This document shows, in pieces, positions 1-11,201 of a DNA stretch of 11,201 nt. The first letter of the stretch is position 1, and each line of letters starts with the position of its first letter. This DNA is from a virus (Duplodnaviria; Heunggongvirae; Uroviricota; Caudoviricetes), in the IMG/VR virus record IMGVR_UViG_2654587569_000008; one strand, written 5' to 3'. The position numbers and the translations under genes were made by a program. The notes under the pieces were generated by a model. That model was not told where the DNA came from. It was given only the letters and a program-made list of their open reading frames with translations, and did not search any database.

Positions 1-1242
1 ATGGCACGAAAAACCACCCCACTAACCATTACGGAGATCAAAAACGCACGACCAGGGGAAAAGGAATACACCCTGCAAGATGGCGGAGGATTATTTCTTC
101 TGGTGAAGCCCTCCGGATCAAAAATATGGCGTTTTACGTACTACCGCCCGGCAGATAAAAAACGGACTATTATCAGCCTTGGATCGCTGAATGATGTTTC
201 CCTGTCTGATGCCAGAGAGCGACGGAATGAATACAGGTCACTAATAGCAAAGGGAACTGACCCACAGGACCATGAACGCCGGAAACGTGAAGCAGAGAGC
301 CGGAAAAAGGGCAACACGTTCGAAAAAGTTGCCTCGGACTGGTACGAGATGAAAAAAGGCCAGAATCTGGCTTACAACACGATTAAGGATATCTGGCGAT
401 CCCTGGAAAAATACGTATTCCCGTACATCGGAAACACGCCAATAGATACCCTCACCGCTCGCCGCTTTGTTGAGATACTCACACCCATTAAAGCACGCGG
501 CAACCTGGAAACTCTGAAACGCGTTTTACAACGCATCAATGAAGTGATGGATTTTGCTGCCAACAGTGGGCTGATTGACATCAACACCGCCGCGAACGTC
601 CGCAAGGCATTCCCTTCCCCCACTAAAAAGCATATGCCAACCATCCGACCGGAACAGCTACCGCAGCTAATGCACGATTTATCGGTCGCCAGCATAGAAC
701 GGCAAACCAGATTGCTAATCGAGTGGCAACTGCTGACCGTAGCACGCCCAGCCGAAGCAGCCGCCGCACGCTGGGAAGAAATAGATCTCGATGCCGAAAC
801 ATGGACGATTCCAGCCGGACGCATGAAGATGCGCCGTGACCATGTGATCCCCCTTTGCGGTCAGGCTATGGCTGTACTGGAAACCATGAAGCCAATCAGC
901 GCACACAGGGAACACGTTTTTCCCAGCCTTAAAAACCCGATGCTGCCAATGAGCAGCCAGACCGCTAACGCCGCATTGCGCCGGATGGGTTACGCTGGTG
1001 TGCTGGTGTCTCACGGATTACGCGCCATATTCAGCACAGCAGCGAACGAGGAAGGATTCGAGCCGGACGTAATCGAGGCCGCGCTCGCACACGTGGACAC
1101 GAACGAGGTAAGGCGAGCATATAACCGAAGTAACTACCTGGAAAAGCGCGTGGTGCTTATGCGCTGGTGGGGGGAATTTGTAGAGGCCGCAGCAACTGGA
1201 GTGACCATAGCCAGTGGTAAAAGGGGTATCCGTGCCGTGTAA
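1..1242 (+). CDS. int: Tyrosine recombinase/integrase, P4 / CP4-57 (IntA-like) family
   Basis: 413-aa ORF. N-terminal MARKT.PLT..EIK...YTL.DG.GL.L..K.SGSK.W.F.YYRP and C-terminal catalytic region (HVIPL...VSHGLRAI...R..YNRS.YL..R..LM..W) match the P4-type integrase family as recalled. Window starts on its ATG, so attL and the target tRNA/tmRNA would lie upstream, outside the window. Confidence 0.9.
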   Translation: MARKTTPLTITEIKNARPGEKEYTLQDGGGLFLLVKPSGSKIWRFTYYRPADKKRTIISLGSLNDVSLSDARERRNEYRSLIAKGTDPQDHERRKREAESRKKGNTFEKVASDWYEMKKGQNLAYNTIKDIWRSLEKYVFPYIGNTPIDTLTARRFVEILTPIKARGNLETLKRVLQRINEVMDFAANSGLIDINTAANVRKAFPSPTKKHMPTIRPEQLPQLMHDLSVASIERQTRLLIEWQLLTVARPAEAAAARWEEIDLDAETWTIPAGRMKMRRDHVIPLCGQAMAVLETMKPISAHREHVFPSLKNPMLPMSSQTANAALRRMGYAGVLVSHGLRAIFSTAANEEGFEPDVIEAALAHVDTNEVRRAYNRSNYLEKRVVLMRWWGEFVEAAATGVTIASGKRGIRAV

Positions 1243-1340: not shown

Positions 1341-1571
1341 ATGCAAAATACCACCGCCTACGGCGAAGGGCTGCAACTGGCGTTAATGGCAAATCGTGAA
1401 TTCTGGTCAACATACGATCCGGAAGACAAATCAACAGCCCCCACAAAACACGAGGTAGTCAGTTTTTTACGCTCGCGTGGCGCATCGAAAAATCTGGCTG
1501 AAAGCATCGACAAGGTGCTGAGGCCCACCAGCCTTAAATGCGGTGGGCGACCTAAGAAGTGGAAACGGTAA
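1341..1571 (+). CDS. Hypothetical small protein (76 aa from the ATG at 1341; the ORF is open from 1245)
   Basis: ORF sits between int and alpA and its stop is followed directly by a strong intrinsic terminator. No clear Shine-Dalgarno at 1341 and no recognisable domain, so start and reality are uncertain. Confidence 0.3.
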   Translation: MQNTTAYGEGLQLALMANREFWSTYDPEDKSTAPTKHEVVSFLRSRGASKNLAESIDKVLRPTSLKCGGRPKKWKR

Positions 1572-1576
1572 TCACA

Positions 1577-1607
1577 ATAGCGGCCCCTTGCGGTCGCTAT
1601 TTTTTTG
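1577..1607 (+). terminator. Rho-independent terminator
   Basis: Hairpin ATAGCGGCC-(CCTTGC)-GGTCGCTAT (about 9 bp with one G-U) followed by TTTTTTT. Confidence 0.65.
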
Positions 1608-1642
1608 CAGAAAGAAAAGCGTAATCAATGAGATAAAAAACA

Positions 1643-1677
1643 GTGCCCACCGTTTAAAAAGGGTGGGTACTGTTTTT
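1643..1677 (+). terminator. Second tandem rho-independent terminator
   Basis: Hairpin GTGCCCACC-(GTTTAAAAAG)-GGTGGGTAC followed by TGTTTTT. Confidence 0.55.
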
Positions 1678-1741
1678 CCCGCCCTGCCCTGTTTTACCGT
1701 ATTTATCACCGGAATACGCCGGATTAACGAGGTAAAACATA

Positions 1742-1948
1742 GTGGAAGCAATCAGAAAAATACTTACCCGTCAGGAAGTAAAAAATATTCTGCGCATCAA
1801 GGCAGACAGTTCGCTACAGGACATGATCAACGCCGGAAAATTCCCGAAAGGCTTCAAAATCGGTCTGCGTCGTGTTGGCTGGTATGAAGATGAAGTGCTG
1901 GCCTGGCTGAAAGAGCGCGAGGAAGAAGCGCGCGGAACGGCTGCGTAA
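1742..1948 (+). CDS. alpA: AlpA-family (Phage_AlpA / MerR-like HTH) regulator or excisionase
   Basis: 68-aa ORF with GTG start and GAGG about 10 nt upstream. Sequence ...LTRQEVKNILRIKADSSLQDMINAGKFPKGFKIGLRRVGWYEDEVLAWLKERE fits the AlpA/Vis-type HTH pattern (FP...W...W). Position next to a P4-type int is typical. Confidence 0.8.
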   Translation: MEAIRKILTRQEVKNILRIKADSSLQDMINAGKFPKGFKIGLRRVGWYEDEVLAWLKEREEEARGTAA

Positions 1949-2097
1949 TGGTGTGAGGCGTAACGCGATGAACATAACAAAAAGCGCCCCGTTACCGGAG
2001 CGCCCTTGCGAACAATTAACCTGCTGCGAAAAAAATGGATCAGTGCAGGGGAATTATATCAACCGTGTGGCGAAGCGCCACAATTGCCGGATAACAG

Positions 2098-2127
2098 GCA
2101 AAACAAAGGCCACCCGCTACGGTGGCC
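2098..2127 (-). terminator. Rho-independent terminator for the minus-strand two-gene unit
   Basis: Perfect 7-bp GC-rich stem GGCCACC-(CGCTAC)-GGTGGCC; on the minus strand it is followed by TTTGTTTT. Lies about 80 nt beyond the stop at 2207. Confidence 0.6.
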
Positions 2128-2206
2128 CCTCGACACAAGCTACACGTTATCCCCAACGCATGAGCATCACCAACAATGCCACATTTGCGGCTGGTGGGCA
2201 ATGTGA

Positions 2207-2380
2207 TCAGTCAGATTTGGTTCGTTCCAAGGTTTGCAACGAGAGCTTTTTCCTGTGCTCTTTAAGGAATTTCTCAAGAGCAAACGAACAAGGTGCGAAT
2301 CTTTCTGATTCATGTTCTATCTTTCTGCGCCGTCTTTTCCGTGCCGGTGATAATGTTTTGGTCAATTCTTTATCGGTCAT
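2207..2380 (-). CDS. Hypothetical small highly basic protein (57 aa; alternative start at 2395)
   Basis: Second gene of the minus-strand unit. AGGA about 9 nt upstream of the ATG at 2380. Arg/Lys-rich (ARKRRRRK); no recognisable family. Confidence 0.4.
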   Translation of the reverse strand: MTDKELTKTLSPARKRRRRKIEHESERFAPCSFALEKFLKEHRKKLSLQTLERTKSD

Positions 2381-2437
2381 TGTGTTGTCCTGCATAGCAA
2401 TGCGCCGTAGTTACTCACACCACGGCGCTGGTGATGG

Positions 2438-2617
2438 TTACTCCTGCTCTTTGGCCTTGCGCCGCTGGCGGCGTTTGATCTCGCCTTGCATTGACGTAAT
2501 GATGAATTGTGATGTGCTTTCGCCTGATTCTTTCACTGATTCCATGGCGTTTACTATTTCGTGTGGTACACGAGCCTTTAGAGCTTGTGATTTTGCGTTT
2601 GTTGTACCCGTTGCCAT
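2438..2617 (-). CDS. Small putative DNA-binding regulator (ribbon-helix-helix-like pattern), candidate island repressor
   Basis: 59-aa ORF starting at an internal ATG of the listed 2438..2791 frame, with GAGGAA 7 nt upstream. KSQALKARVPHEIVNAMESVKESGESTSQFIITSM resembles the strand-helix-helix layout of CopG/Arc proteins. Divergent from the early operon with operators in between. Function is inferred, not demonstrated. Confidence 0.45.
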   Translation of the reverse strand: MATGTTNAKSQALKARVPHEIVNAMESVKESGESTSQFIITSMQGEIKRRQRRKAKEQE

Positions 2618-2678
2618 TTCTATTCCTCTGGTGGATTGGTGGGGGACAGTATACACAGAAAAAGCACAAATAAAACTC

Positions 2679-2724
2679 TTGACGTGGGCCACACCTAAAA
2701 CATATAGTGGGCCACACCTTAAAA
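2679..2724 (+). promoter_or_regulatory. Sigma70-like early promoter overlapped by two direct-repeat palindromic operators
   Basis: TTGACG (2679-2684), 18-nt spacer, TATAGT (2703-2708). Two copies of GTGGGCCACACCT(T)AAAA at 2684-2700 and 2707-2724, 23 bp apart, one between -35 and -10 and one over the start region. Core GTGG-G-CCAC is itself a palindrome. Confidence 0.45.
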
Positions 2725-2816
2725 TTATCAAGGCGCATAAATGCAAAGCCCCGCAAGTGTCGTTACCACTCGCAGGGCTTCTAACCACCAACGATAGCAG
2801 AAGTATCGAGGTAGCT

Positions 2817-3023
2817 ATGAGAAATTATACCAGACACCCGCAAGGGCGGGACTCGCACAACCTGAATAAATACATCTGGCGTTTTATCGCCCTGAGCACG
2901 GCACAACCGCGCGTGATTACCATTGAGGCCACCAGCGAACAGGAAGCACGCCAGCAATCTCCTGATGGCTGCGTGATGGTATTCGCCGCCCGTATTCGTC
3001 AGGAGGTGCGCCATGTGCAATAA
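2817..3023 (+). CDS. Hypothetical protein (68 aa), possible first gene of the early operon
   Basis: ATG with GAGGT 5-6 nt upstream; its stop overlaps the next gene's start. It is the 3' part of a long, otherwise implausible plus-strand ORF, so confidence is low. Confidence 0.3.
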   Translation: MRNYTRHPQGRDSHNLNKYIWRFIALSTAQPRVITIEATSEQEARQQSPDGCVMVFAARIRQEVRHVQ

Positions 3024-3252
3024 CCCCCGTCCGGACGCAGCCGCCGAAGCTATCAGAACGCTGATGCACGCGCTGATTGATATTTCATGCACGGCAGCAA
3101 CCGCAGAAAAACACATTACCAGAGAGCCGGAATATACAGGGGCAATAATCCCGCATTCGCTGGCCTACGCACAGCTTACCGCTGATATGGCACTGAATGA
3201 GGCCAGGGCTATCCTGATTGCTGATTGTGAAAATGGGGGGGGTTATGCGTGA
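3013..3252 (+). CDS. Hypothetical protein (79 aa)
   Basis: Strong Shine-Dalgarno AGGAGGTG 5 nt upstream of the ATG. Stop overlaps the next start (ATGCGTGA). Confidence 0.55.
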   Translation: MCNNPRPDAAAEAIRTLMHALIDISCTAATAEKHITREPEYTGAIIPHSLAYAQLTADMALNEARAILIADCENGGGYA

Positions 3253-3478
3253 TGATCGTTTTAATGCCCTGAAACAGGAATTTGATGGCGCACCGGAACA
3301 CGAAGCAGACGCATTGTTGGGCGTTGCTGACATGATAAAAGCCGCATTTTTTCTTATCAATACCAGTGGCTACAGGTCAGAGGGTGCGGAGATTCTCAAT
3401 ATTGCGTCGGACTATGCGGAATATGTTGCAGAGGCGCGTTACAGAAGAAAATTCCCGGAGGTGGTGAGCCATGAATGA
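3245..3478 (+). CDS. Hypothetical protein (77 aa)
   Basis: ATG at 3245 preceded by a G-rich SD-like run; translationally coupled upstream and downstream (ATGAATGA overlap at 3471-3478). Confidence 0.5.
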   Translation: MRDDRFNALKQEFDGAPEHEADALLGVADMIKAAFFLINTSGYRSEGAEILNIASDYAEYVAEARYRRKFPEVVSHE

Positions 3479-3703: not shown

Positions 3704-4003
3704 ATGAAACAGAAAAATTCTGGCTTTACTGCCAGCGGCCTCTCTCGGCCTGAAATCCGCCCCGGCGATATTTTCAAAGATAAATACGGCGGCACTGTAA
3801 CGATTAAAAGCGTGGTGGGACGGTGTGTTACTTACCGCCGTGATGGGTACGGCTATGACTGCGTGATGCCTGTTTATCAGTTCCGGCGTGATTTTTCTCT
3901 GGTACAGAACGCAACACGCGGTAAGCCCACCAGCAGGGAAAAAGCACGGGAAAATATTAAGAAAATAAAAAGCATGCTCAGCGCATCCAGAGGTAAAAAA
4001 TGA
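3704..4003 (+). CDS. Hypothetical protein (99 aa), basic C-terminus
   Basis: GGAGAA upstream of the ATG; its stop overlaps the repA start (ATGA at 4000-4003). Confidence 0.55.
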   Translation: MKQKNSGFTASGLSRPEIRPGDIFKDKYGGTVTIKSVVGRCVTYRRDGYGYDCVMPVYQFRRDFSLVQNATRGKPTSREKARENIKKIKSMLSASRGKK

Positions 4004-5406
4004 AACTGGCACCGAACGTAAAACTGTTACCGAAAGATAAACACACTGAGGCGGTTATTTTTGCGGGTGATAATGCTCACTCCTTTGCAGAACATTACAT
4101 GATTGCACAGGCCAAAAAAGCAGGCGATCCCATCCCTCCGGTTTACCTGGGCCGTTATCAGTTAAGCGAACTGGACAATTTACAGATTGTTGATGAAGGA
4201 CGATACAGAGCAAAGGTCATACGCGCCGGAAACCTGGACGATATGCAGATGCTGACCATTGCCACCAAATTGGCGATCGCAGGTGTCCGGGAAGCGCGGT
4301 TACTTTCAGAGAATTTCGAACTACTGGAGGACTGGAGCGAGCAACTACCGCGGCTTAAAGAAACCTGGGAACGCGGGGAAAGTCTGGTCATGAATGGTGG
4401 AAAGCGAAAAATCACACTTCCCATCTCATGGGGTTCTGAGGGATTCGACGCGCAGCAAAGCTACGTAATTAAGGGGCTTATTCCGGCTGAATCATTATGC
4501 AGCACCTACGGGGCCAGCGGTTCTTATAAATCGTTCCTGGCTATTTCCTGGTCGTGTCATGTTGCCACAGGTATAGCATGGGGAGGCCGCAGGGTAAGTA
4601 AGGGCGCGGTTATTTATATCGCTGGCGAAGGCAGCATGGGCGTAAAACGCCGCGTTAAGGCGTGGGAGATAACCCACGACAAGGTGGTTACAGATTTGTG
4701 CATCATTAACGCGCCTGTTTTCCCTGCATCGCCTGACTATGTGGAGCAGGTTATCAGAACTGCCGGACTTGTTAAGAGCAGAACGGGCGAAAATGTGCGG
4801 CTGATTGTGATAGACACGCTGGCCCGTTGCTTTGGTGGGAATGATGAAAATGATTCCCGTGATATGGGCGCATTTATCCAGGGGTGTGACGCGATAAAGC
4901 AGGCCACAGGGGCCACGGTGCTGGTGGTTCACCATTCCGGCAAGGATGAAACAAAGGGGGCGCGTGGTTCCAGCGCATTCCGTGCCGCACTGGATGCAGA
5001 GTACCGAATCAGCCGGGAAAATTCAGACGTTACAGCACTGGTGGCGGCGTGTACGAAGATGAAGGACGCAGAGGAGCCAAAAGAAAGCGCATACGACCTT
5101 AAAAGCGTGGAGGTGTTTACCGATACAGATGGCGAAGAGATTGTGTCCATGGTGGTGATTGACGTTCCCCGCGCCCCTGCTGAACTGGAACGCATCGAGG
5201 AGGCCGGGAACAAGACGGAAAATCACACGGCTTTATGGGGTTGTATCCGATCACGTATACAGCATGGTGATAAATGCACGATCCCGCTGCTACGTGACGA
5301 CATGAAAAAGCTGGGATATGACACAAAACACCTTAAACGATGGTTAGCAAAACTGGAAAAAGACGGCGTGATTTGCGTCGATGGGGATGATGTTCACCCA
5401 CTGTAA
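4000..5406 (+). CDS. Replication initiator/helicase, RepA-like RecA-fold ATPase (AAA_25-like)
   Basis: 468 aa. Walker A-like GASGSYKS, Walker B-like LIVIDTLARCF, a VLVVHHSGKDE motif, and a basic C-terminal tail that could be a DNA-binding domain. No primase domain recognised. Followed immediately by an iteron array. Confidence 0.85.
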   Translation: MKLAPNVKLLPKDKHTEAVIFAGDNAHSFAEHYMIAQAKKAGDPIPPVYLGRYQLSELDNLQIVDEGRYRAKVIRAGNLDDMQMLTIATKLAIAGVREARLLSENFELLEDWSEQLPRLKETWERGESLVMNGGKRKITLPISWGSEGFDAQQSYVIKGLIPAESLCSTYGASGSYKSFLAISWSCHVATGIAWGGRRVSKGAVIYIAGEGSMGVKRRVKAWEITHDKVVTDLCIINAPVFPASPDYVEQVIRTAGLVKSRTGENVRLIVIDTLARCFGGNDENDSRDMGAFIQGCDAIKQATGATVLVVHHSGKDETKGARGSSAFRAALDAEYRISRENSDVTALVAACTKMKDAEEPKESAYDLKSVEVFTDTDGEEIVSMVVIDVPRAPAELERIEEAGNKTENHTALWGCIRSRIQHGDKCTIPLLRDDMKKLGYDTKHLKRWLAKLEKDGVICVDGDDVHPL

Positions 5407-5610: not shown

Positions 5611-5860
5611 GACAAGAAAAACCAGAGATAAGACAGCACCAAAATATAAAGCGTTAGACATGACAGAGCACGCCTTAAAGGTGGCAATCAGAACGATAGA
5701 CCGCCACGCCGGGGAAGGATACGCGAAAGCACATCCCGAACTGATAAGCGCATTCATGACCACGACGGCGGCAAATTTTGCCACGCTGACAGAGCGGGAG
5801 ATTGCCGAAGCGGAACAGGTAACAACAATCAACGTTAAAACCGGAGAGGTGGAATCATGA
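5609..5860 (+). CDS. Hypothetical protein (83 aa from the ATG at 5609; ORF open from 5477)
   Basis: AGGTGG just upstream of the ATG at 5609; the longer version would be translated across the iterons. Stop overlaps the ssb start (ATGA). Confidence 0.4.
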   Translation: MTRKTRDKTAPKYKALDMTEHALKVAIRTIDRHAGEGYAKAHPELISAFMTTTAANFATLTEREIAEAEQVTTINVKTGEVES

Positions 5861-6279
5861 CAGCACAGATAGCGGCTTACGGGCGGCTGGTGGCTGACCC
5901 GCAGTTAAAGACCACCAGCAAAGGGACACAAATGGCGATGGCGAGTATGGCAGTTCCCCTGCCGTGCAGCCAGGCAGATGACGGAACGGCGACGATGTGG
6001 TTATCTGTCCGGGCGTTTGGCAGACAGGCCGACGCACTGGCAAAACACCACAAAGGCGAACTCCTGAGCGTGGCGGGTAACATGCAGGTGAGCCAGTGGA
6101 CAGGCCAGAACGGCGAAACGCGGCAGGGCTGGCAGGTTATCGCAGACAGTGTAATCAGTGCCAGAACGGCGCGACCGGGCGGCAAAAAAGGTCAACAGGG
6201 GCAGGCTACTGACGCACTGAACAGGGCAAAACAACAGGCGGGAAATGATGATCCGTACGGGGATAACATACCGTTTTAA
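5857..6279 (+). CDS. ssb: Single-stranded DNA-binding protein (SSB)
   Basis: 140 aa. OB-fold region aligns by eye with E. coli SSB (GRLVADPQL..., W..V..FG..A......KG......G.....W....G), and the C-terminus ends DDPYGDNIPF, matching the SSB acidic tip D-D-D-I-P-F. GGAGAGGTGG RBS. Confidence 0.8.
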   Translation: MTAQIAAYGRLVADPQLKTTSKGTQMAMASMAVPLPCSQADDGTATMWLSVRAFGRQADALAKHHKGELLSVAGNMQVSQWTGQNGETRQGWQVIADSVISARTARPGGKKGQQGQATDALNRAKQQAGNDDPYGDNIPF

Positions 6280-6552: not shown

Positions 6553-7593
6553 ATGAGTGATTTATATTCGCCAGCCATGTTAATACAGGTTGTTAATGCC
6601 GAAGATATTCAATGGCAGATTAATTCTTTATTTATAAACCTGTTTTTTAAGCGAGTCGTTACATTTGAGACGCGGGATATTGCGCTTGATATTATTGACG
6701 ATCCAGACATCCCGATGGCTGCATTTTGTTCCCCTATGGTTGGTAGTAAAGTCTCACGCGATGAAGGCTACGAATCAAAAGTAATTCGCCCTGGCTATAT
6801 GAAGCCAAAAAGTAGTATCGACCCAAATAAAATAGCCGTTCGTCAACCAGGCGTATCACCTGAACAATTCAATGCATATTCATCACGCAGTTTCAAAATA
6901 AAGCGAGCGTTAGTAAGACAAGCGCAGGCAATTCGTGCGCGTATTGAGTGGCTTGCTGTTCAGGCGGTTACAACGGGGAAAAATATCATTGAAGGCGATG
7001 GAATTGAACGTTATGAACTGGACTGGAATATAAAACCACAAAATATTATCACGCAGTCCGGCGGCACGGAGTGGAGCGGTAGAGATTTATCAACATTTGA
7101 TCCAAACGATGACATCGAAGAGTACGCAGAAATCAGCGAAGGTACTACAAATATCATCGTAATGGGCCGCAACGTATGGAAAAAATACCGCGCCTTTAAA
7201 GCAGTAAAAGATTGCCTTGATACTCGACGGGGATCTAATTCCGTTCTTGAAACGGCCCTGAAAAATCTTGGGGATTCTGTAAGCTTCAAGGGTTACGTTG
7301 GCGATGTTGCTATTGTGGTATATAGCGGACGTTATACCGACGAGGACGGCAAAGAAAAATATTTCCTTGATCCTGATTTGATGGTGCTTGGCAACACATC
7401 ATTACAGGGCATCGTTGCCTACGGTGGCATTCAGGATCCTGAGTTAATCAGAATGGGGCTGACTAAAGCCGAACTTGCGCCGAAAAATTACATCGTACCA
7501 GGTGATCCGGCTATTGAATATGTGCAGACGCACAGCGCACCGCAACCAATACCGGCCCGCATCAATCGTTTTGTTACCGTTCGCATTGGTTAA
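6553..7593 (+). CDS. Major capsid protein, phage lambda gpE family
   Basis: 346 aa (lambda gpE is 341). Long blocks match gpE as recalled: NIITQSGGTEWS, KAVKDCLDTRRGSNSVLETA, GDVAIVVYSGRY, MVLGNT, PGYMKPK, PKNYIVPGDPA. AAGAGG RBS. Confidence 0.9.
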   Translation: MSDLYSPAMLIQVVNAEDIQWQINSLFINLFFKRVVTFETRDIALDIIDDPDIPMAAFCSPMVGSKVSRDEGYESKVIRPGYMKPKSSIDPNKIAVRQPGVSPEQFNAYSSRSFKIKRALVRQAQAIRARIEWLAVQAVTTGKNIIEGDGIERYELDWNIKPQNIITQSGGTEWSGRDLSTFDPNDDIEEYAEISEGTTNIIVMGRNVWKKYRAFKAVKDCLDTRRGSNSVLETALKNLGDSVSFKGYVGDVAIVVYSGRYTDEDGKEKYFLDPDLMVLGNTSLQGIVAYGGIQDPELIRMGLTKAELAPKNYIVPGDPAIEYVQTHSAPQPIPARINRFVTVRIG

Positions 7594-7602
7594 GGGGGAG
7601 CA

Positions 7603-7944
7603 ATGGCTACTCATTACACTGAACTCATGGCTGGCACTGAAGCACTGGTTACTACGTTGGGGATATTTTCAGCTAATAAAGGGGTAATTCCTGCATTTAC
7701 GCCACTGATGCAAGAAGATGCAACTGGTGCACTGGTGGTATGGGATGGAACGAGCGCAGGCAAAGCTGTTTATGTTTCCGCTGTACAAATCGATACAGCG
7801 ACAAAAACGCAGGCTCAGGTTTATAAAACCGGCGTCTTAAATGTTGATGCTCTGAACTGGCCTGAGTCTGTAACACAACTATCAGCAAAAGTTGCTGCGT
7901 TTGTTGGCTCAGGTATTTCTGTTCAGCCGCTGGCACGTGTGTGA
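7603..7944 (+). CDS. Head decoration protein, phage lambda gpD family
   Basis: 113 aa (gpD is 110). TPLMQEDATGALVVWDGTSAGKAV against gpD [24 protein letters not shown], and VYKTGVLNVDALNWPES against FYKSGTFRYEDVLWPEA. AAGGGGGAG RBS. Gene order is E then D, the reverse of lambda. Confidence 0.8.
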   Translation: MATHYTELMAGTEALVTTLGIFSANKGVIPAFTPLMQEDATGALVVWDGTSAGKAVYVSAVQIDTATKTQAQVYKTGVLNVDALNWPESVTQLSAKVAAFVGSGISVQPLARV

Positions 7945-7953
7945 GGTACGAGA

Positions 7954-8298
7954 ATGATTGAAAGAGATAGTCAGCTACGAGAGCTATTAGATATCGATGA
8001 CAAAATGAGTTTAAGCGAGCGCCTTGTTGATATGGATCAGGTAGTGGAGCTTACAACCCTTAGCCGTCGCACATTGCTAAACCTTGAGGCTCGCGGAGAG
8101 TTCCCCGAACGCGTACAGGTTACGAAAGGGCGCAAGGCATGGTATTTAAGCGAGGTTGTTGCGTGGATTAACAACATTCCGCGCGCATCAAATTATTGCC
8201 TTGTTCCCACCCCCGAAAAACCTGATGCGGCGTTATGCCTCAAGATTGAACGCGCCAGGCGTAATGCCCTGAAAGGACGCAATAAGTTGATTGGTTGA
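7954..8298 (+). CDS. Second AlpA-family HTH protein inside the late module
   Basis: 114 aa. VVELTTLSRRTLLNLEARGEFPERVQVTKGRKAWYLSEVVAWINN fits the AlpA/excisionase-type HTH. GAGG RBS. Confidence 0.7.
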   Translation: MIERDSQLRELLDIDDKMSLSERLVDMDQVVELTTLSRRTLLNLEARGEFPERVQVTKGRKAWYLSEVVAWINNIPRASNYCLVPTPEKPDAALCLKIERARRNALKGRNKLIG

Positions 8299-8319: not shown

Positions 8320-8400
8320 CTGGCGGGTCCTTTCCGGCGATCCGGCAGGCTACGGGGCGGCGACCTTGCGTATTTTCGCTATTTATGAGCCTTTTCGGGT
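8320..8400. other. Lambda-like cos site (cosQ, cosN, I2-like segment)
   Basis: GGGTCCTTTCCGGCGATCCGGCAGGCTACGGGGCGGCGACCTTGCGTATTTTCGCTATTTATGAGCCTTTTCGGG is nearly identical to the lambda/cosmid cos sequence as recalled. The 12-nt cohesive-end sequence GGGCGGCGACCT is at 8355-8366. Confidence 0.8.
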
Positions 8401-8499
8401 TGGTGGTGGTGGTTTTGTTTTTCGCTCTATCTCTATGAATAAAAAGGGAAAGATAACACCAACACACCAACCTGAAACCTTAACTAAGTGGGGATATTG

Positions 8500-9042
8500 A
8501 TGAAATCGCACCTGATGAACAAAAAAACTATGGCGCAAAGCTGCCGCGTAAGTGCGACAGCGTTCGACAAGTGGGGAGTAACTCCCGTTGAGCGTAAAGG
8601 CCGTGAGGCGTTTTATGATGTTGCTAGCGTGATAGACAATAGGGTTAACAATGCAATTAACCAGCTTACAAACGACAAAGGCGAGATTGATGATGATGAA
8701 CTTTTACGCGTAAGAATCAGATTAATGACGGCCCAGGCGGAAGCGCAGGAACTTAAAAACGAGCGCGAACGCGGCGAGGTGATTGATACAAAGTTTTGCA
8801 TCTACGCGATTTCAAAACTAGCGAGTCAGATTTCATCAATCATGGACAGCCTCCCGCTCACAATGCAAAGGCGCTTTCCCGATATAAGGCCGTATATGCT
8901 GGATGAACTAAAAAGGGAAATAGCCAAAGCATGTAACGCATGTGCAAGACTTGACGAAAACCTGCCACAGATACTGGCTGATTACCTGATGGAAACTACC
9001 GGAAACGCGCCTGAGAAGTTGCTACAGAACAAAGGCGAGTAA
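8500..9042 (+). CDS. Terminase small subunit, lambda Nu1 family
   Basis: About 180 aa from the ATG at 8500 (ORF listed from the GTG at 8488). C-terminal two-thirds align by eye with Nu1 (RLMTAQAEAQELKNERERGEVIDTKFCIYAISKLASQISSIMDSLPLTMQRRFPDI against Nu1 RLTRAQADAQELKNARDSAEVVETAFCTFVLSRIAGEIASILDGLPLSVQRRFPEL). N-terminal DNA-binding region is related but more diverged. About 135 bp downstream of cosN, as in lambda. Confidence 0.85.
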   Translation: MKSHLMNKKTMAQSCRVSATAFDKWGVTPVERKGREAFYDVASVIDNRVNNAINQLTNDKGEIDDDELLRVRIRLMTAQAEAQELKNERERGEVIDTKFCIYAISKLASQISSIMDSLPLTMQRRFPDIRPYMLDELKREIAKACNACARLDENLPQILADYLMETTGNAPEKLLQNKGE

Positions 9043-10715: not shown

Positions 10716-11201
10716 TCAGAACGTCCAGACTACACCCGCCTGAGTTGTGCTGCTTTCTTCACAGGAGAAACGACTATCGATACCGAGCGTCAGGCCCGTC
10801 AATGTTTGCTCAAAGCCAGCTCCCGCATCAGTGTTCACGCTGTTGCGGCTGTTAATTGCCGAACTCCACATCGCCGTATCGTAATTAACGCCTTTTACGC
10901 TACCAAGACGCCCACGCACGGTGTCCAGTTCTGCATCAAATACCAGCGGTTGTGCTGCCGCCATATTCAGCACATCCGTGGTTGAAGGGGGCATTTGTAC
11001 GCGATTCTCTGCGAGACTCCAGCTATGGTTGCCATTATCCAGCAAGGTATATTCATACGTACTGATATCAACAACGCTTCCGGCATTGCCCAACGTAAAT
11101 GCCGCATCACCGCGCCCTCCTTTAATCGTGGGATCATTCGCCGCGCCATAAACCTGTAGCACTCCATTATTGATCGTAGTCTGATTTACCGCGCCACCCA
11201 T
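10716..11201 (-). CDS. 3' part of a gene running off the window: autotransporter-like passenger/junction fragment, apparently without the beta-barrel
   Basis: N-terminus lies beyond 11201. Passenger-like repeats (TINNGVLQVYGAAN...), a junction-like motif (TVRGRLGSV...AMWSS...GAGFEQTLTGLTLGIDSRF), then a stop after ...GVVWTF, only about 20 residues into what would be a ~250-aa barrel. Family assignment is pattern-based and tentative. Confidence 0.45.
   Translation of the reverse strand: MGGAVNQTTINNGVLQVYGAANDPTIKGGRGDAAFTLGNAGSVVDISTYEYTLLDNGNHSWSLAENRVQMPPSTTDVLNMAAAQPLVFDAELDTVRGRLGSVKGVNYDTAMWSSAINSRNSVNTDAGAGFEQTLTGLTLGIDSRFSCEESSTTQAGVVWTF

Follow-up and report, generated by a model that had tools for sequence, protein, structure and literature searches.

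A candidate P4-style immunity region in an EcCICFT073-type satellite: a putative YlcI repressor, its cognate operators and a predicted SymR-like antisense RNA

The 11,201-nucleotide DNA of IMG/VR record IMGVR_UViG_2654587569_000008 (the window, meaning here the whole stretch that was analysed) is a satellite of the EcCICFT073 type, that is, a Gram-negative phage-inducible chromosomal island (PICI), with the same gene order as the prototype EcCICFT073. The region between its activator gene alpA and its replication genes is read here, with moderate confidence, as a P4-style immunity or maintenance lock consisting of a protein repressor and an antisense RNA. The protein, a 59-aa member of the YlcI family encoded divergently from the early operon, very probably pairs with a set of three short operators, to judge from the covariation of two of its residues with the operator centre. 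The question matters since EcCICFT073-type satellites have been thought to have no known repressor. An earlier interpretation of the same DNA, made from the letters alone (the sequence-only reading), had described the region as a repressor-controlled lysogeny switch with paired palindromic operators and as the place to look for the sensing of a helper phage; the layout which it described is largely borne out, but the role in helper sensing is not.

Divergent promoters and operators

The early promoter lies exactly where the sequence-only reading had placed it, with the hexamers and spacing then given (TTGACG, 18 nt, TATAGT), and the divergent 59-aa gene is present on the minus strand. The divergent layout is therefore real, but the region is not simply intergenic, its plus strand lying inside a long open frame. 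The early promoter is the sole sigma-70-like match of a two-hexamer promoter scan within 1500-3300, with a predicted transcription start at about 2714-2716. Its geometry is conserved in a comparison set of about 170-175 related loci from genomes, metagenomes and IMG/VR: the -35 stands at a constant distance from the ylcI start in 75 of the 79 distinct intergenic sequences, and a TAnnnT -10 follows it after 17-18 nt in 77. On the opposite strand, the plus-strand 8-mer AnTATAC-, which reads as TATAnT on the minus strand, is kept at +33..+40 in nearly all 79 and would be the -10 of the ylcI promoter.

The early promoter is overlapped by a direct repeat (2684-2705 and 2707-2728), and the two copies that had been noted 23 bp apart are exact, with a common 13-mer, GTGGGCCACACCT, starting at 2684 and at 2707. 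The 11-mer GTGGGCCACAC within it occurs exactly twice in the 11.2 kb window, at sites O1 and O2. Among 86 distinct related loci, the frame of the operator, GTG-N5-CA(C), does not change, while the N5 centre varies between loci and is identical, or differs by 1-2 nt, among the three sites of one locus. The cognate 11-mer is found only at offsets +24, +69 and +91..105 from the ylcI start, with about 3 kb searched on each side. The +24 site adjoins the conserved TATAnT -10 of ylcI, the +69 site comes directly after the -35 (TTGA[CAG]G), and the third-offset site, at +91 to +105, is direct or inverted depending on the class, O2 lying 22-36 bp from O1 in the other classes. The number of operators is thus three per locus: the two exact copies of the sequence-only reading hold, but it missed the third, O3 (2639-2649). 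Similarly, the term palindromic is right for the 9-mer GTGGnCCAC of the window class but not for the family as a whole, in which the centre is often asymmetric and O2 is inverted in some classes.

Additional operators near alpA or int were considered and rejected, the two-mismatch matches at 1518, 2561 and 9726 being at chance level (five matches to GTGGGCCACAC with up to two mismatches, against 2.8 expected); in the relatives, likewise, no consistent sites were found beyond the three fixed offsets. The sequence CACCTT that borders O2 on the right makes up an inverted repeat together with AAGGCG (in relatives, AAGGTG), which follows some 10 nt further downstream (2714-2735, plus strand), and in classes with a distant O2 this site is flanked as AAGGTG-N5-CACCTT; the repeat could form a stem-loop at the 5' end of the early mRNA, or represent the remnant of a half-site or a weak fourth site.

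The position of O1 in the promoter spacer and of O2 over the -10 and +1 argues for repression of the early promoter, and YlcI would thus act, with good though not full confidence, by repression rather than activation. O3 covers the final 2 nt of the ylcI -10 as well as the predicted ylcI +1; its place on the ylcI promoter is the counterpart of that of O2 on the early promoter, an arrangement that speaks for autoregulation of ylcI. The +24 site carries the locus-specific centre in most classes. In the window, O3 differs at two positions from the cognate form GTGGGCCACAG, which relatives from Enterobacter and Pseudocitrobacter (L002, L003) have kept. Of the five centre bases that mark the class, two are no longer present at O3 in the E. 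coli lineage to which EcCICFT073 belongs (seen in the window and at L174 8677-8687), and this decay suggests that autoregulation of ylcI is relaxed there.

YlcI and operator specificity

The window protein belongs to the YlcI/YnfO family (NCBIfam NF041551, 68 bits against a cut-off of 30, residues 9-50), and the Prokaryotic Genome Annotation Pipeline (PGAP) gives its orthologues the same family name. No function is assigned to this family, and PHROG 949 is labelled 'unknown function'. An AlphaFold2 model built with 47 homologues (predicted local distance difference test score, pLDDT, of 90) has an extended N-terminus with a beta-strand at about residues 9-17, followed by helices at 19-28 and 35-58; the basic tail, EIKRRQR, is invariant. 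The strand, the two helices and the likeness to solved proteins are those of the ribbon-helix-helix (RHH) fold. At the level of sequence, no Pfam RHH match was found at E up to 0.1, the only Pfam match (Lyase_1) being spurious, and searches of the PDB with YlcI and with a 47-sequence profile returned nothing relevant and no solved RHH chain. YlcI is consequently an RHH protein by its predicted fold and not by sequence match to Pfam or the PDB. At 59 aa it is a single domain, with no space for a sensor domain.

The strand follows the pattern S10-Q11-x12-h13-x14-h15-R16-h17-P18, in which h is hydrophobic; as the h positions would face the core, residues 10, 12, 14 and 16 would form the outward side. 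Among the 86 distinct loci, the operator centre tracks residues 12 and 14 one to one, in ten classes and with no exception. The pairs (residues 12 and 14, then centre) include A/S and K with GGCCA; S and T with TAAGA (operator GTGTAAGACAC); M and T with TATTT; Q and N with CGATT; Q and V with GCATT; Q and S with GTGTT; Q and A with CTAAC; K and Q with GAnTC (TACTC in one locus); and K and S with TCCGT. Such covariation is, at the level of comparative evidence, the signature of a specificity pair of repressor and operator. It also lends indirect support to dimerisation of YlcI and to DNA binding through paired beta-strands, and the link made earlier between the overlapped operators and a small DNA-binding protein is strengthened accordingly, the presumed DNA-reading residues of a predicted RHH fold being those that covary.

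The operator class is not tied to the alleles on either side: one AlpA allele occurs with three classes, one Icd-like allele with four and one orf62 allele with two, and near-identical YlcI proteins are found alongside AlpA alleles of 40-98% identity. The small gene orf62, downstream of ylcI and probably co-transcribed with it, was found by tblastn in only 67 of about 175 loci and so does not belong to the constant parts of the module. That ylcI and orf62 form a toxin-antitoxin pair of type II is unlikely, as orf62 is missing from most loci and two of the three operators lie on the early promoter. As ylcI and the operators are adjacent, linkage alone would give some covariation. The decoupling from the genes on both sides, together with the restriction of the variation to two residues and five bases, argues for function; it reduces this concern and does not remove it.

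A predicted antisense RNA over the Icd-like start

The leader of the Icd-like gene, the first gene of the early operon, folds much better as minus-strand than as plus-strand RNA (for 2714-2822, -51 kcal/mol and a z-score of -7.4, against -27.5 kcal/mol and -2.1). The minus strand is also the better one in every one of 45 diverse relatives (median z -4.1 against -2.4); if the plus strand were folded in the same way, 260 pairs that are G-U in the minus-strand folds would turn into C-A mismatches, and G-U is the commonest pair at three positions of the consensus fold. The consensus obtained with RNAalifold from 31 sequences comprises a closing helix, a hairpin with an anti-Shine-Dalgarno sequence in its loop and a terminator hairpin; 98.2% of its cells are paired and 11 of its 22 pairs carry compensatory double changes, which none of 500 shuffles equalled. 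In the window, the predicted RNA would begin at the icd-like start codon, place its hairpin 1 over the Shine-Dalgarno sequence and end with a terminator hairpin (2780..2746) and a U-rich tail.

A promoter for this RNA can be read in the first codons of its target. This promoter has an extended -10, TGGTATAAT on the minus strand, from which transcription would begin at about 2817; the two-hexamer promoter scan did not flag it. In 42 of 43 diverse loci a TAnnnT is separated from the complement of the start codon by a constant gap, either 4 or 10 nt, against a background of 3% per position, and it is conserved across six unrelated N-terminal coding contexts of the Icd-like protein; the TGn extension accompanies it in all 17 loci with the gap of 4, which is the window type. 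A GC-rich hairpin, CCCGC-AAGG-GCGGG (2834-2849, plus strand), lies within the Icd-like gene just upstream, on the minus strand, of this -10, and its 8-mer CCCGCAAG recurs in the terminator hairpin at 2750, a recurrence that within 500 nt may well be due to chance.

The architecture predicted, a cis-antisense RNA of about 77 nt with two hairpins and a terminator, a promoter inside the target frame, and the Shine-Dalgarno sequence and AUG covered, is that of SymR. The Rfam SymR model matches the predicted place and strand in 7 of 11 relatives (25-43 bits), and it aligns over its full length to one of them (L004, E 2e-5), from the start-codon complement, with a near-identical terminator apex, GUGUUGGCGCAC. 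Moreover, a covariance model, R1, built solely from loci with other Icd N-terminal types, matches the window at 2816..2735 on the minus strand only (47 bits, E 7e-10; 10 bits on the plus strand) and also finds EcCICFT073, P4 not being found. A plus-strand leader structure, or a CI/C4-like tRNA mimic ending in ACCA, was rejected on the same grounds, namely the R1 scores and the base pairs, which are of the G-U type for the minus strand but C-A for the plus strand. Neither the whole window, searched against Rfam at E up to 1, nor 2600-2900, searched at E up to 10, gave a match to C4, isrK, sar or SymR; the matches obtained were weak and unrelated, such as isrJ at E 6.4. Taken together, these observations make it likely that the antisense RNA is real and expressed, in which case it would block translation of the Icd-like protein from leaky early transcripts, with probable polar effects downstream.

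A long frame through the divergent region

The frame of the Icd-like gene is open from 1863, with possible starts at a GTG (1953, giving 356 aa, 1953-3023) and at an ATG preceded by GAGG (1968); it runs antisense through orf62, ylcI and the operator region, so that the Icd-like protein is a short nested product. In 90 of 108 distinct loci, no stop codon interrupts this frame over at least the 380 nt that precede the Icd-like ATG (median 694 nt), whereas the other two frames are open that far in 2 of 108 each and close after a median of 18 and 3 nt. It mostly begins -8 to +11 nt from the stop of the upstream gene on the same strand, alpA or a Bro/ANT-like gene, and the EcCICFT073 version encodes 428 aa. 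An artefact of the shadow type was rejected, since the frame and ylcI are one base out of exact antiparallel register and since the promoter DNA, which is non-coding, does not close the frame. In some PGAP annotations, part of the frame appears as a 160-aa 'Icd-like protein' overlapping ylcI (L001 9993-10472).

Between alpA and orf62, the two terminator-like hairpins have their T-run on the minus strand only, so that nothing obvious stops alpA transcripts from entering the long frame. Two further terminator-like hairpins with T-runs (1576-1608 and 1641-1680, plus strand) lie between an open reading frame (ORF) on the int side and alpA; the second consists of CAGTGCCCACC-N9-GGTGGGTACTG followed by TTTTT and stands only some 60 bp ahead of the alpA start. 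With an alpA promoter upstream of them, helper-dependent induction of alpA could proceed via antitermination. The Rfam int-alpA RNA motif (RF02996) is present in three relatives (L005, L007, L008) and has no match in the window.

Proposed mechanism and alternative explanations

Under the mechanism proposed here, YlcI would bind its three cognate GTG-N5-CA(C) sites; on O1 and O2 it would silence the early operon (the Icd-like gene, small ORFs, primase-helicase and SSB), and on O3, over the ylcI -10/+1, it would regulate its own synthesis, O3 being degenerate in the window lineage. The SymR-like antisense RNA of about 80 nt would be the second lock, covering the Shine-Dalgarno sequence and start codon of the Icd-like gene and mopping up leaky transcripts. 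By analogy with vis-eta/kil of P4, transcripts from the helper-induced and self-activated alpA promoter would read through into the long ORF; their translation would proceed across the antisense target, and they would remove YlcI from the operators, interfere with transcription of ylcI and pass over the antisense promoter. Being translated, such transcripts would be insensitive to the antisense RNA and to polarity, and the early genes would be expressed from them despite the lock. In a naive cell that has just received the satellite, the early promoter would be active until YlcI has built up. A lock that is overridden in this way would set and keep quiescence, for instance after transfer, and would not be the helper sensor. 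The read-through and the bypass along the long ORF, drawn by analogy, form the weakest link and are somewhat doubtful, if plausible.

Several points weigh against this picture. Binding, repression, expression of the RNA and read-through are all inferred from comparative and predictive evidence. O3 is degenerate both in the window and in EcCICFT073, and the -35 of ylcI is poor, with a T-rich spacer. The antisense region of the window gives no match to Rfam SymR at E up to 10 (2600-2900), the matches in relatives (25-43 bits) are below the gathering score of 61 of RF01809, the U-tract of the terminator is interrupted and was not called by a terminator scan, and the gap-10 form of the antisense -10 overlaps a conserved protein motif, QHTQT, so that its conservation could partly reflect coding constraint. 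Furthermore, 18 of 108 loci have no open frame through ylcI, the long ORF has no recognisable domain upstream of icd-like, and the Icd-like protein of the window is not significantly similar to the P4 ORF by BLASTP (E 0.17), the two sharing an NCBIfam domain only.

The most direct alternative, and the one implied by the sequence-only reading, is a switch of the Stl type, in which a helper protein would inactivate YlcI as master repressor and derepression of the early promoter would be the primary induction event. The divergent arrangement of repressor and early operon does match that of stl/str in the Staphylococcus aureus pathogenicity islands (SaPI), and the phage-encoded inducer of EcCICFT073 was still unidentified in the study of that element (PMC6092414); YlcI, moreover, looks like an operator-binding protein. 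However, in EcCICFT073 helpers induce alpA transcription, over-expression of AlpA alone leads to excision and replication without a helper, and expression of 'ORF3' requires AlpA (PMC6092414). These data put the sensing at alpA, near which there is no cognate operator, so that inactivation of YlcI would not explain the induction of alpA; YlcI is a minimal predicted RHH protein without an extra domain, and the coupling of the long ORF to alpA, together with terminators on the minus strand only, points to a bypass as in P4, whose immunity region is circumvented from an upstream promoter and not inactivated. The Stl-type switch is accordingly improbable, and nothing found points to direct anti-repression of YlcI by a helper protein. 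What stands of the earlier interpretation is an operator-overlapped early promoter divergent from the gene of a predicted DNA-binding protein; its suggestion that a helper inactivates this repressor finds no support. The predicted antisense RNA and the overlapping long frame were not noticed in it.

The same components could also be viewed as a cassette controlling a putatively toxic Icd-like protein, held in check in the manner of a type I toxin-antitoxin system by the repressor and the SymR-like RNA for stabilisation or abortive infection, with the control of replication being incidental. Annotations describe proteins of the Icd family as inhibitors of cell division, the predicted antisense RNA is similar to SymR in its sequence, structure and location, and repression at several levels mirrors that of symE by LexA, SymR and Lon. 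Set against this, the operon that opens with the Icd-like gene runs without a gap into the primase-helicase and SSB genes, so that any block would likely be polar on the replication genes, and the same position in P4 is occupied by an immunity region. Such a cassette as the main function is given a low probability, although it largely overlaps the lock proposed here and does not exclude it. As for the repeats, MerR-like regulators can act from promoter spacers, and O1 and O2 might be sites at which AlpA, or another satellite or helper regulator, activates the early promoter, with YlcI unrelated to them; AlpA does activate gene expression in EcCICFT073 (PMC6092414). This is highly improbable: the operator class follows residues 12 and 14 of YlcI, the allelic combinations described above rule AlpA out as the operator-binding protein, and the spacer of 17-18 bp differs from the long one typical of MerR-type activation. 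The two-part lock remains the preferred explanation.

Element identity and gene content

The features of the window are collected in Table 1. An integrase, alpA, a co-oriented early and replication operon with a primase, late helper-like packaging and capsid genes, a size of about 10 kb and a specific attachment site are all those of an EcCICFT073-type PICI; induction by helper phage and transfer are known for EcCICFT073 only (PMC6092414). YlcI of EcCICFT073 is 98% identical to that of the window, and the early promoter and operators are identical, the AlpA allele being different. A near-identical island is found in E. coli QML220601 at tRNA-Pro, between yejM and yejO. A truncated autotransporter ORF of the window (10716-11201, minus strand) matches the yejO pseudogene flanking that island, which places the right end of the element near 9.5-10.7 kb. 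With a 1.7-kb query running from alpA up to where the early operon begins, matches were obtained in 1801 of 5426 complete E. coli genomes, mostly to the ylcI/icd-like part of the query.

The satellite encodes a major head protein, a head decoration protein and TerS, the first two being present as a pair in EcCICFT073 too; no portal, protease or TerL gene is found inside the window. A long imperfect palindrome of about 85 nt (8392-8478), between the second helix-turn-helix (HTH) gene and the TerS gene, surfaced as spurious Rfam matches to miRNA precursors on both strands and could be a packaging or regulatory site.

Table 1. Features of the 11,201-nucleotide window, in order of position
Feature	Position	Strand	Basis or remark
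Integrase	1-1242	+	
alpA, activator known from EcCICFT073	1742-1948	+	Pfam Phage_AlpA, E 4.5e-8
Long open frame, eta-like, in frame with icd-like	1968-3023	+	351 aa from ATG 1968
Two terminator-like hairpins for the ylcI-orf62 transcript	2130..2105, 2007..1980	-	Terminator scan; no plus-strand T-run
orf62	2207-2395	-	ORF list; PHROG 21027, 'unknown function'
ylcI-like gene, 59 aa, putative repressor	2438-2617	-	
O3, GTGGGGGACAG, putative third operator	2639-2649	+	+24 from ylcI start
ylcI promoter, predicted -10 (TATACT on minus strand)	2648-2653	-	Conserved 8-mer
Early promoter, predicted	2679-2708	+	Promoter scan; -35 TTGACG 2679-2684, 18-nt spacer, -10 TATAGT 2703-2708
O1, GTGGGCCACAC, putative operator	2684-2694	+	Fills -35/-10 spacer of early promoter; +69 from ylcI start in all loci
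O2, GTGGGCCACAC, putative operator	2707-2717	+	End of early -10 to about +3
Cis-antisense RNA, SymR-like, about 80 nt, predicted	2735-2817	-	Folding, covariation, covariance model
Icd-like gene, 68 aa, first of early operon	2817-3023	+	NCBIfam phage_ICD_like, 70 bits
Antisense promoter, predicted extended -10, TGGTATAAT	2832-2824	-	Read from sequence; codons 3-6 of icd-like
DUF4222 protein	3704-4003	+	
AAA_25 domain protein, primase position	4000-5406	+	PGAP: larger counterpart is a DNA primase family protein
SSB	5857-6279	+	
Major head (capsid) protein	6553-7593	+	PHROG 29
Head decoration protein	7603-7944	+	
Second excisionase-like HTH protein	7954-8298	+	
TerS	8488-9042	+	

Comparison with known systems and significance

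RHH switches, SymR-type RNAs and nested-gene immunity of the P4 kind are each known, while their combination in a model Gram-negative PICI is not described in the literature searched, in which no later paper giving a function for YlcI/YnfO or describing a repressor of EcCICFT073 was found either. If the reading given here holds, the repressor may have been missed because small genes were absent from the older annotation, as the high RefSeq locus-tag numbers suggest. More tentatively, it is possible that EcCICFT073 and its relatives, the best-studied Gram-negative PICIs, carry a P4-like immunity region as their missing layer of master repression, comprising an RHH repressor (with at least ten operator-specificity classes), a SymR-like RNA and an eta-like long ORF translated only from AlpA-driven transcripts, and this would explain the action of AlpA as an activator through overriding read-through. 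If true, Gram-negative PICIs and P4 would share one regulatory ground plan with interchangeable effectors (the CI RNA, or an RHH protein with an antisense RNA), the ten specificity classes would define immunity groups among satellites, and a compact natural set of orthogonal repressors and operators, with specificity apparently set by two residues, would become available; every step would be directly testable in the existing EcCICFT073 system.

Among repressor-based switches, Stl of SaPI and Rpr of Gram-positive PICIs share with YlcI a repressor gene that diverges from, and faces, the excision and replication operon of the satellite. They are large HTH proteins inactivated by helper proteins, whereas YlcI, a 59-aa single-domain protein of predicted RHH fold, has neither an HTH nor a separate helper-binding domain. 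The immI region of P22 (Mnt/Arc, Pant/Pmnt and sar RNA) differs in that it controls an antirepressor, with two RHH proteins and operators of another form, and the window has no Pfam match to Arc or Mnt. The Omega repressor of pSM19035, an RHH protein acting on direct or inverted repeats, uses contiguous 7-bp heptads, in contrast to the 10-11-bp sites 22-45 bp apart of the window type.

SymR, a validated antisense RNA, is transcribed from a promoter within symE and represses SymE translation alongside the control of symE transcription by LexA. Common to both systems, as far as predicted for the window, are an antisense RNA of about 77-80 nt, a promoter in the first codons of the target, coverage of the Shine-Dalgarno sequence and start codon, and a target that is also repressed at the level of transcription. 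The target and the transcriptional repressor are different: the AbrB-fold SymE and LexA in one case, an Icd-like protein heading a replication operon and YlcI in the other.

Finally, the closest parallel in gene arrangement is the immunity region of P4, made up of PLL-vis-eta/kil with PLE, the CI RNA and seqA/seqC. In both, a long ORF begins at the end of the AlpA/Vis gene and contains an internal early promoter and a nested in-frame Icd-like product, followed by small ORFs and a primase, and an RNA factor acts, or is predicted to act in the case of the window, on the leader of the nested gene. The 'cI ORF' of P4 (P4p10), which follows the AlpA homologue vis, has the same Icd-like domain at its end (E 8e-21). 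The CI RNA lies inside this ORF (Rfam C4, 74.9 bits), and an isrK match (seqA) is found just upstream of it (60.8 bits); neither C4 nor isrK was found by Rfam in 14 YlcI-type loci searched or in the window. A direct BLAST relationship of the Icd-like protein to P4 or P1 was discarded, tblastn against phages having found one unrelated prophage record. In P4, transcripts from the internal promoter are terminated under CI immunity, and the long Eta protein is translated only from the upstream late promoter, in translational coupling to the alpA homologue, its translation preventing termination (PMC10111431). To judge from the conservation of the frame, translation of the long ORF of the window may bypass immunity as in P4. 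The two regions differ in that P4 uses a processed sense-strand CI RNA, whereas the window would use a protein repressor with operators and a cis-antisense RNA, the repressor gene lying antisense inside the long ORF.

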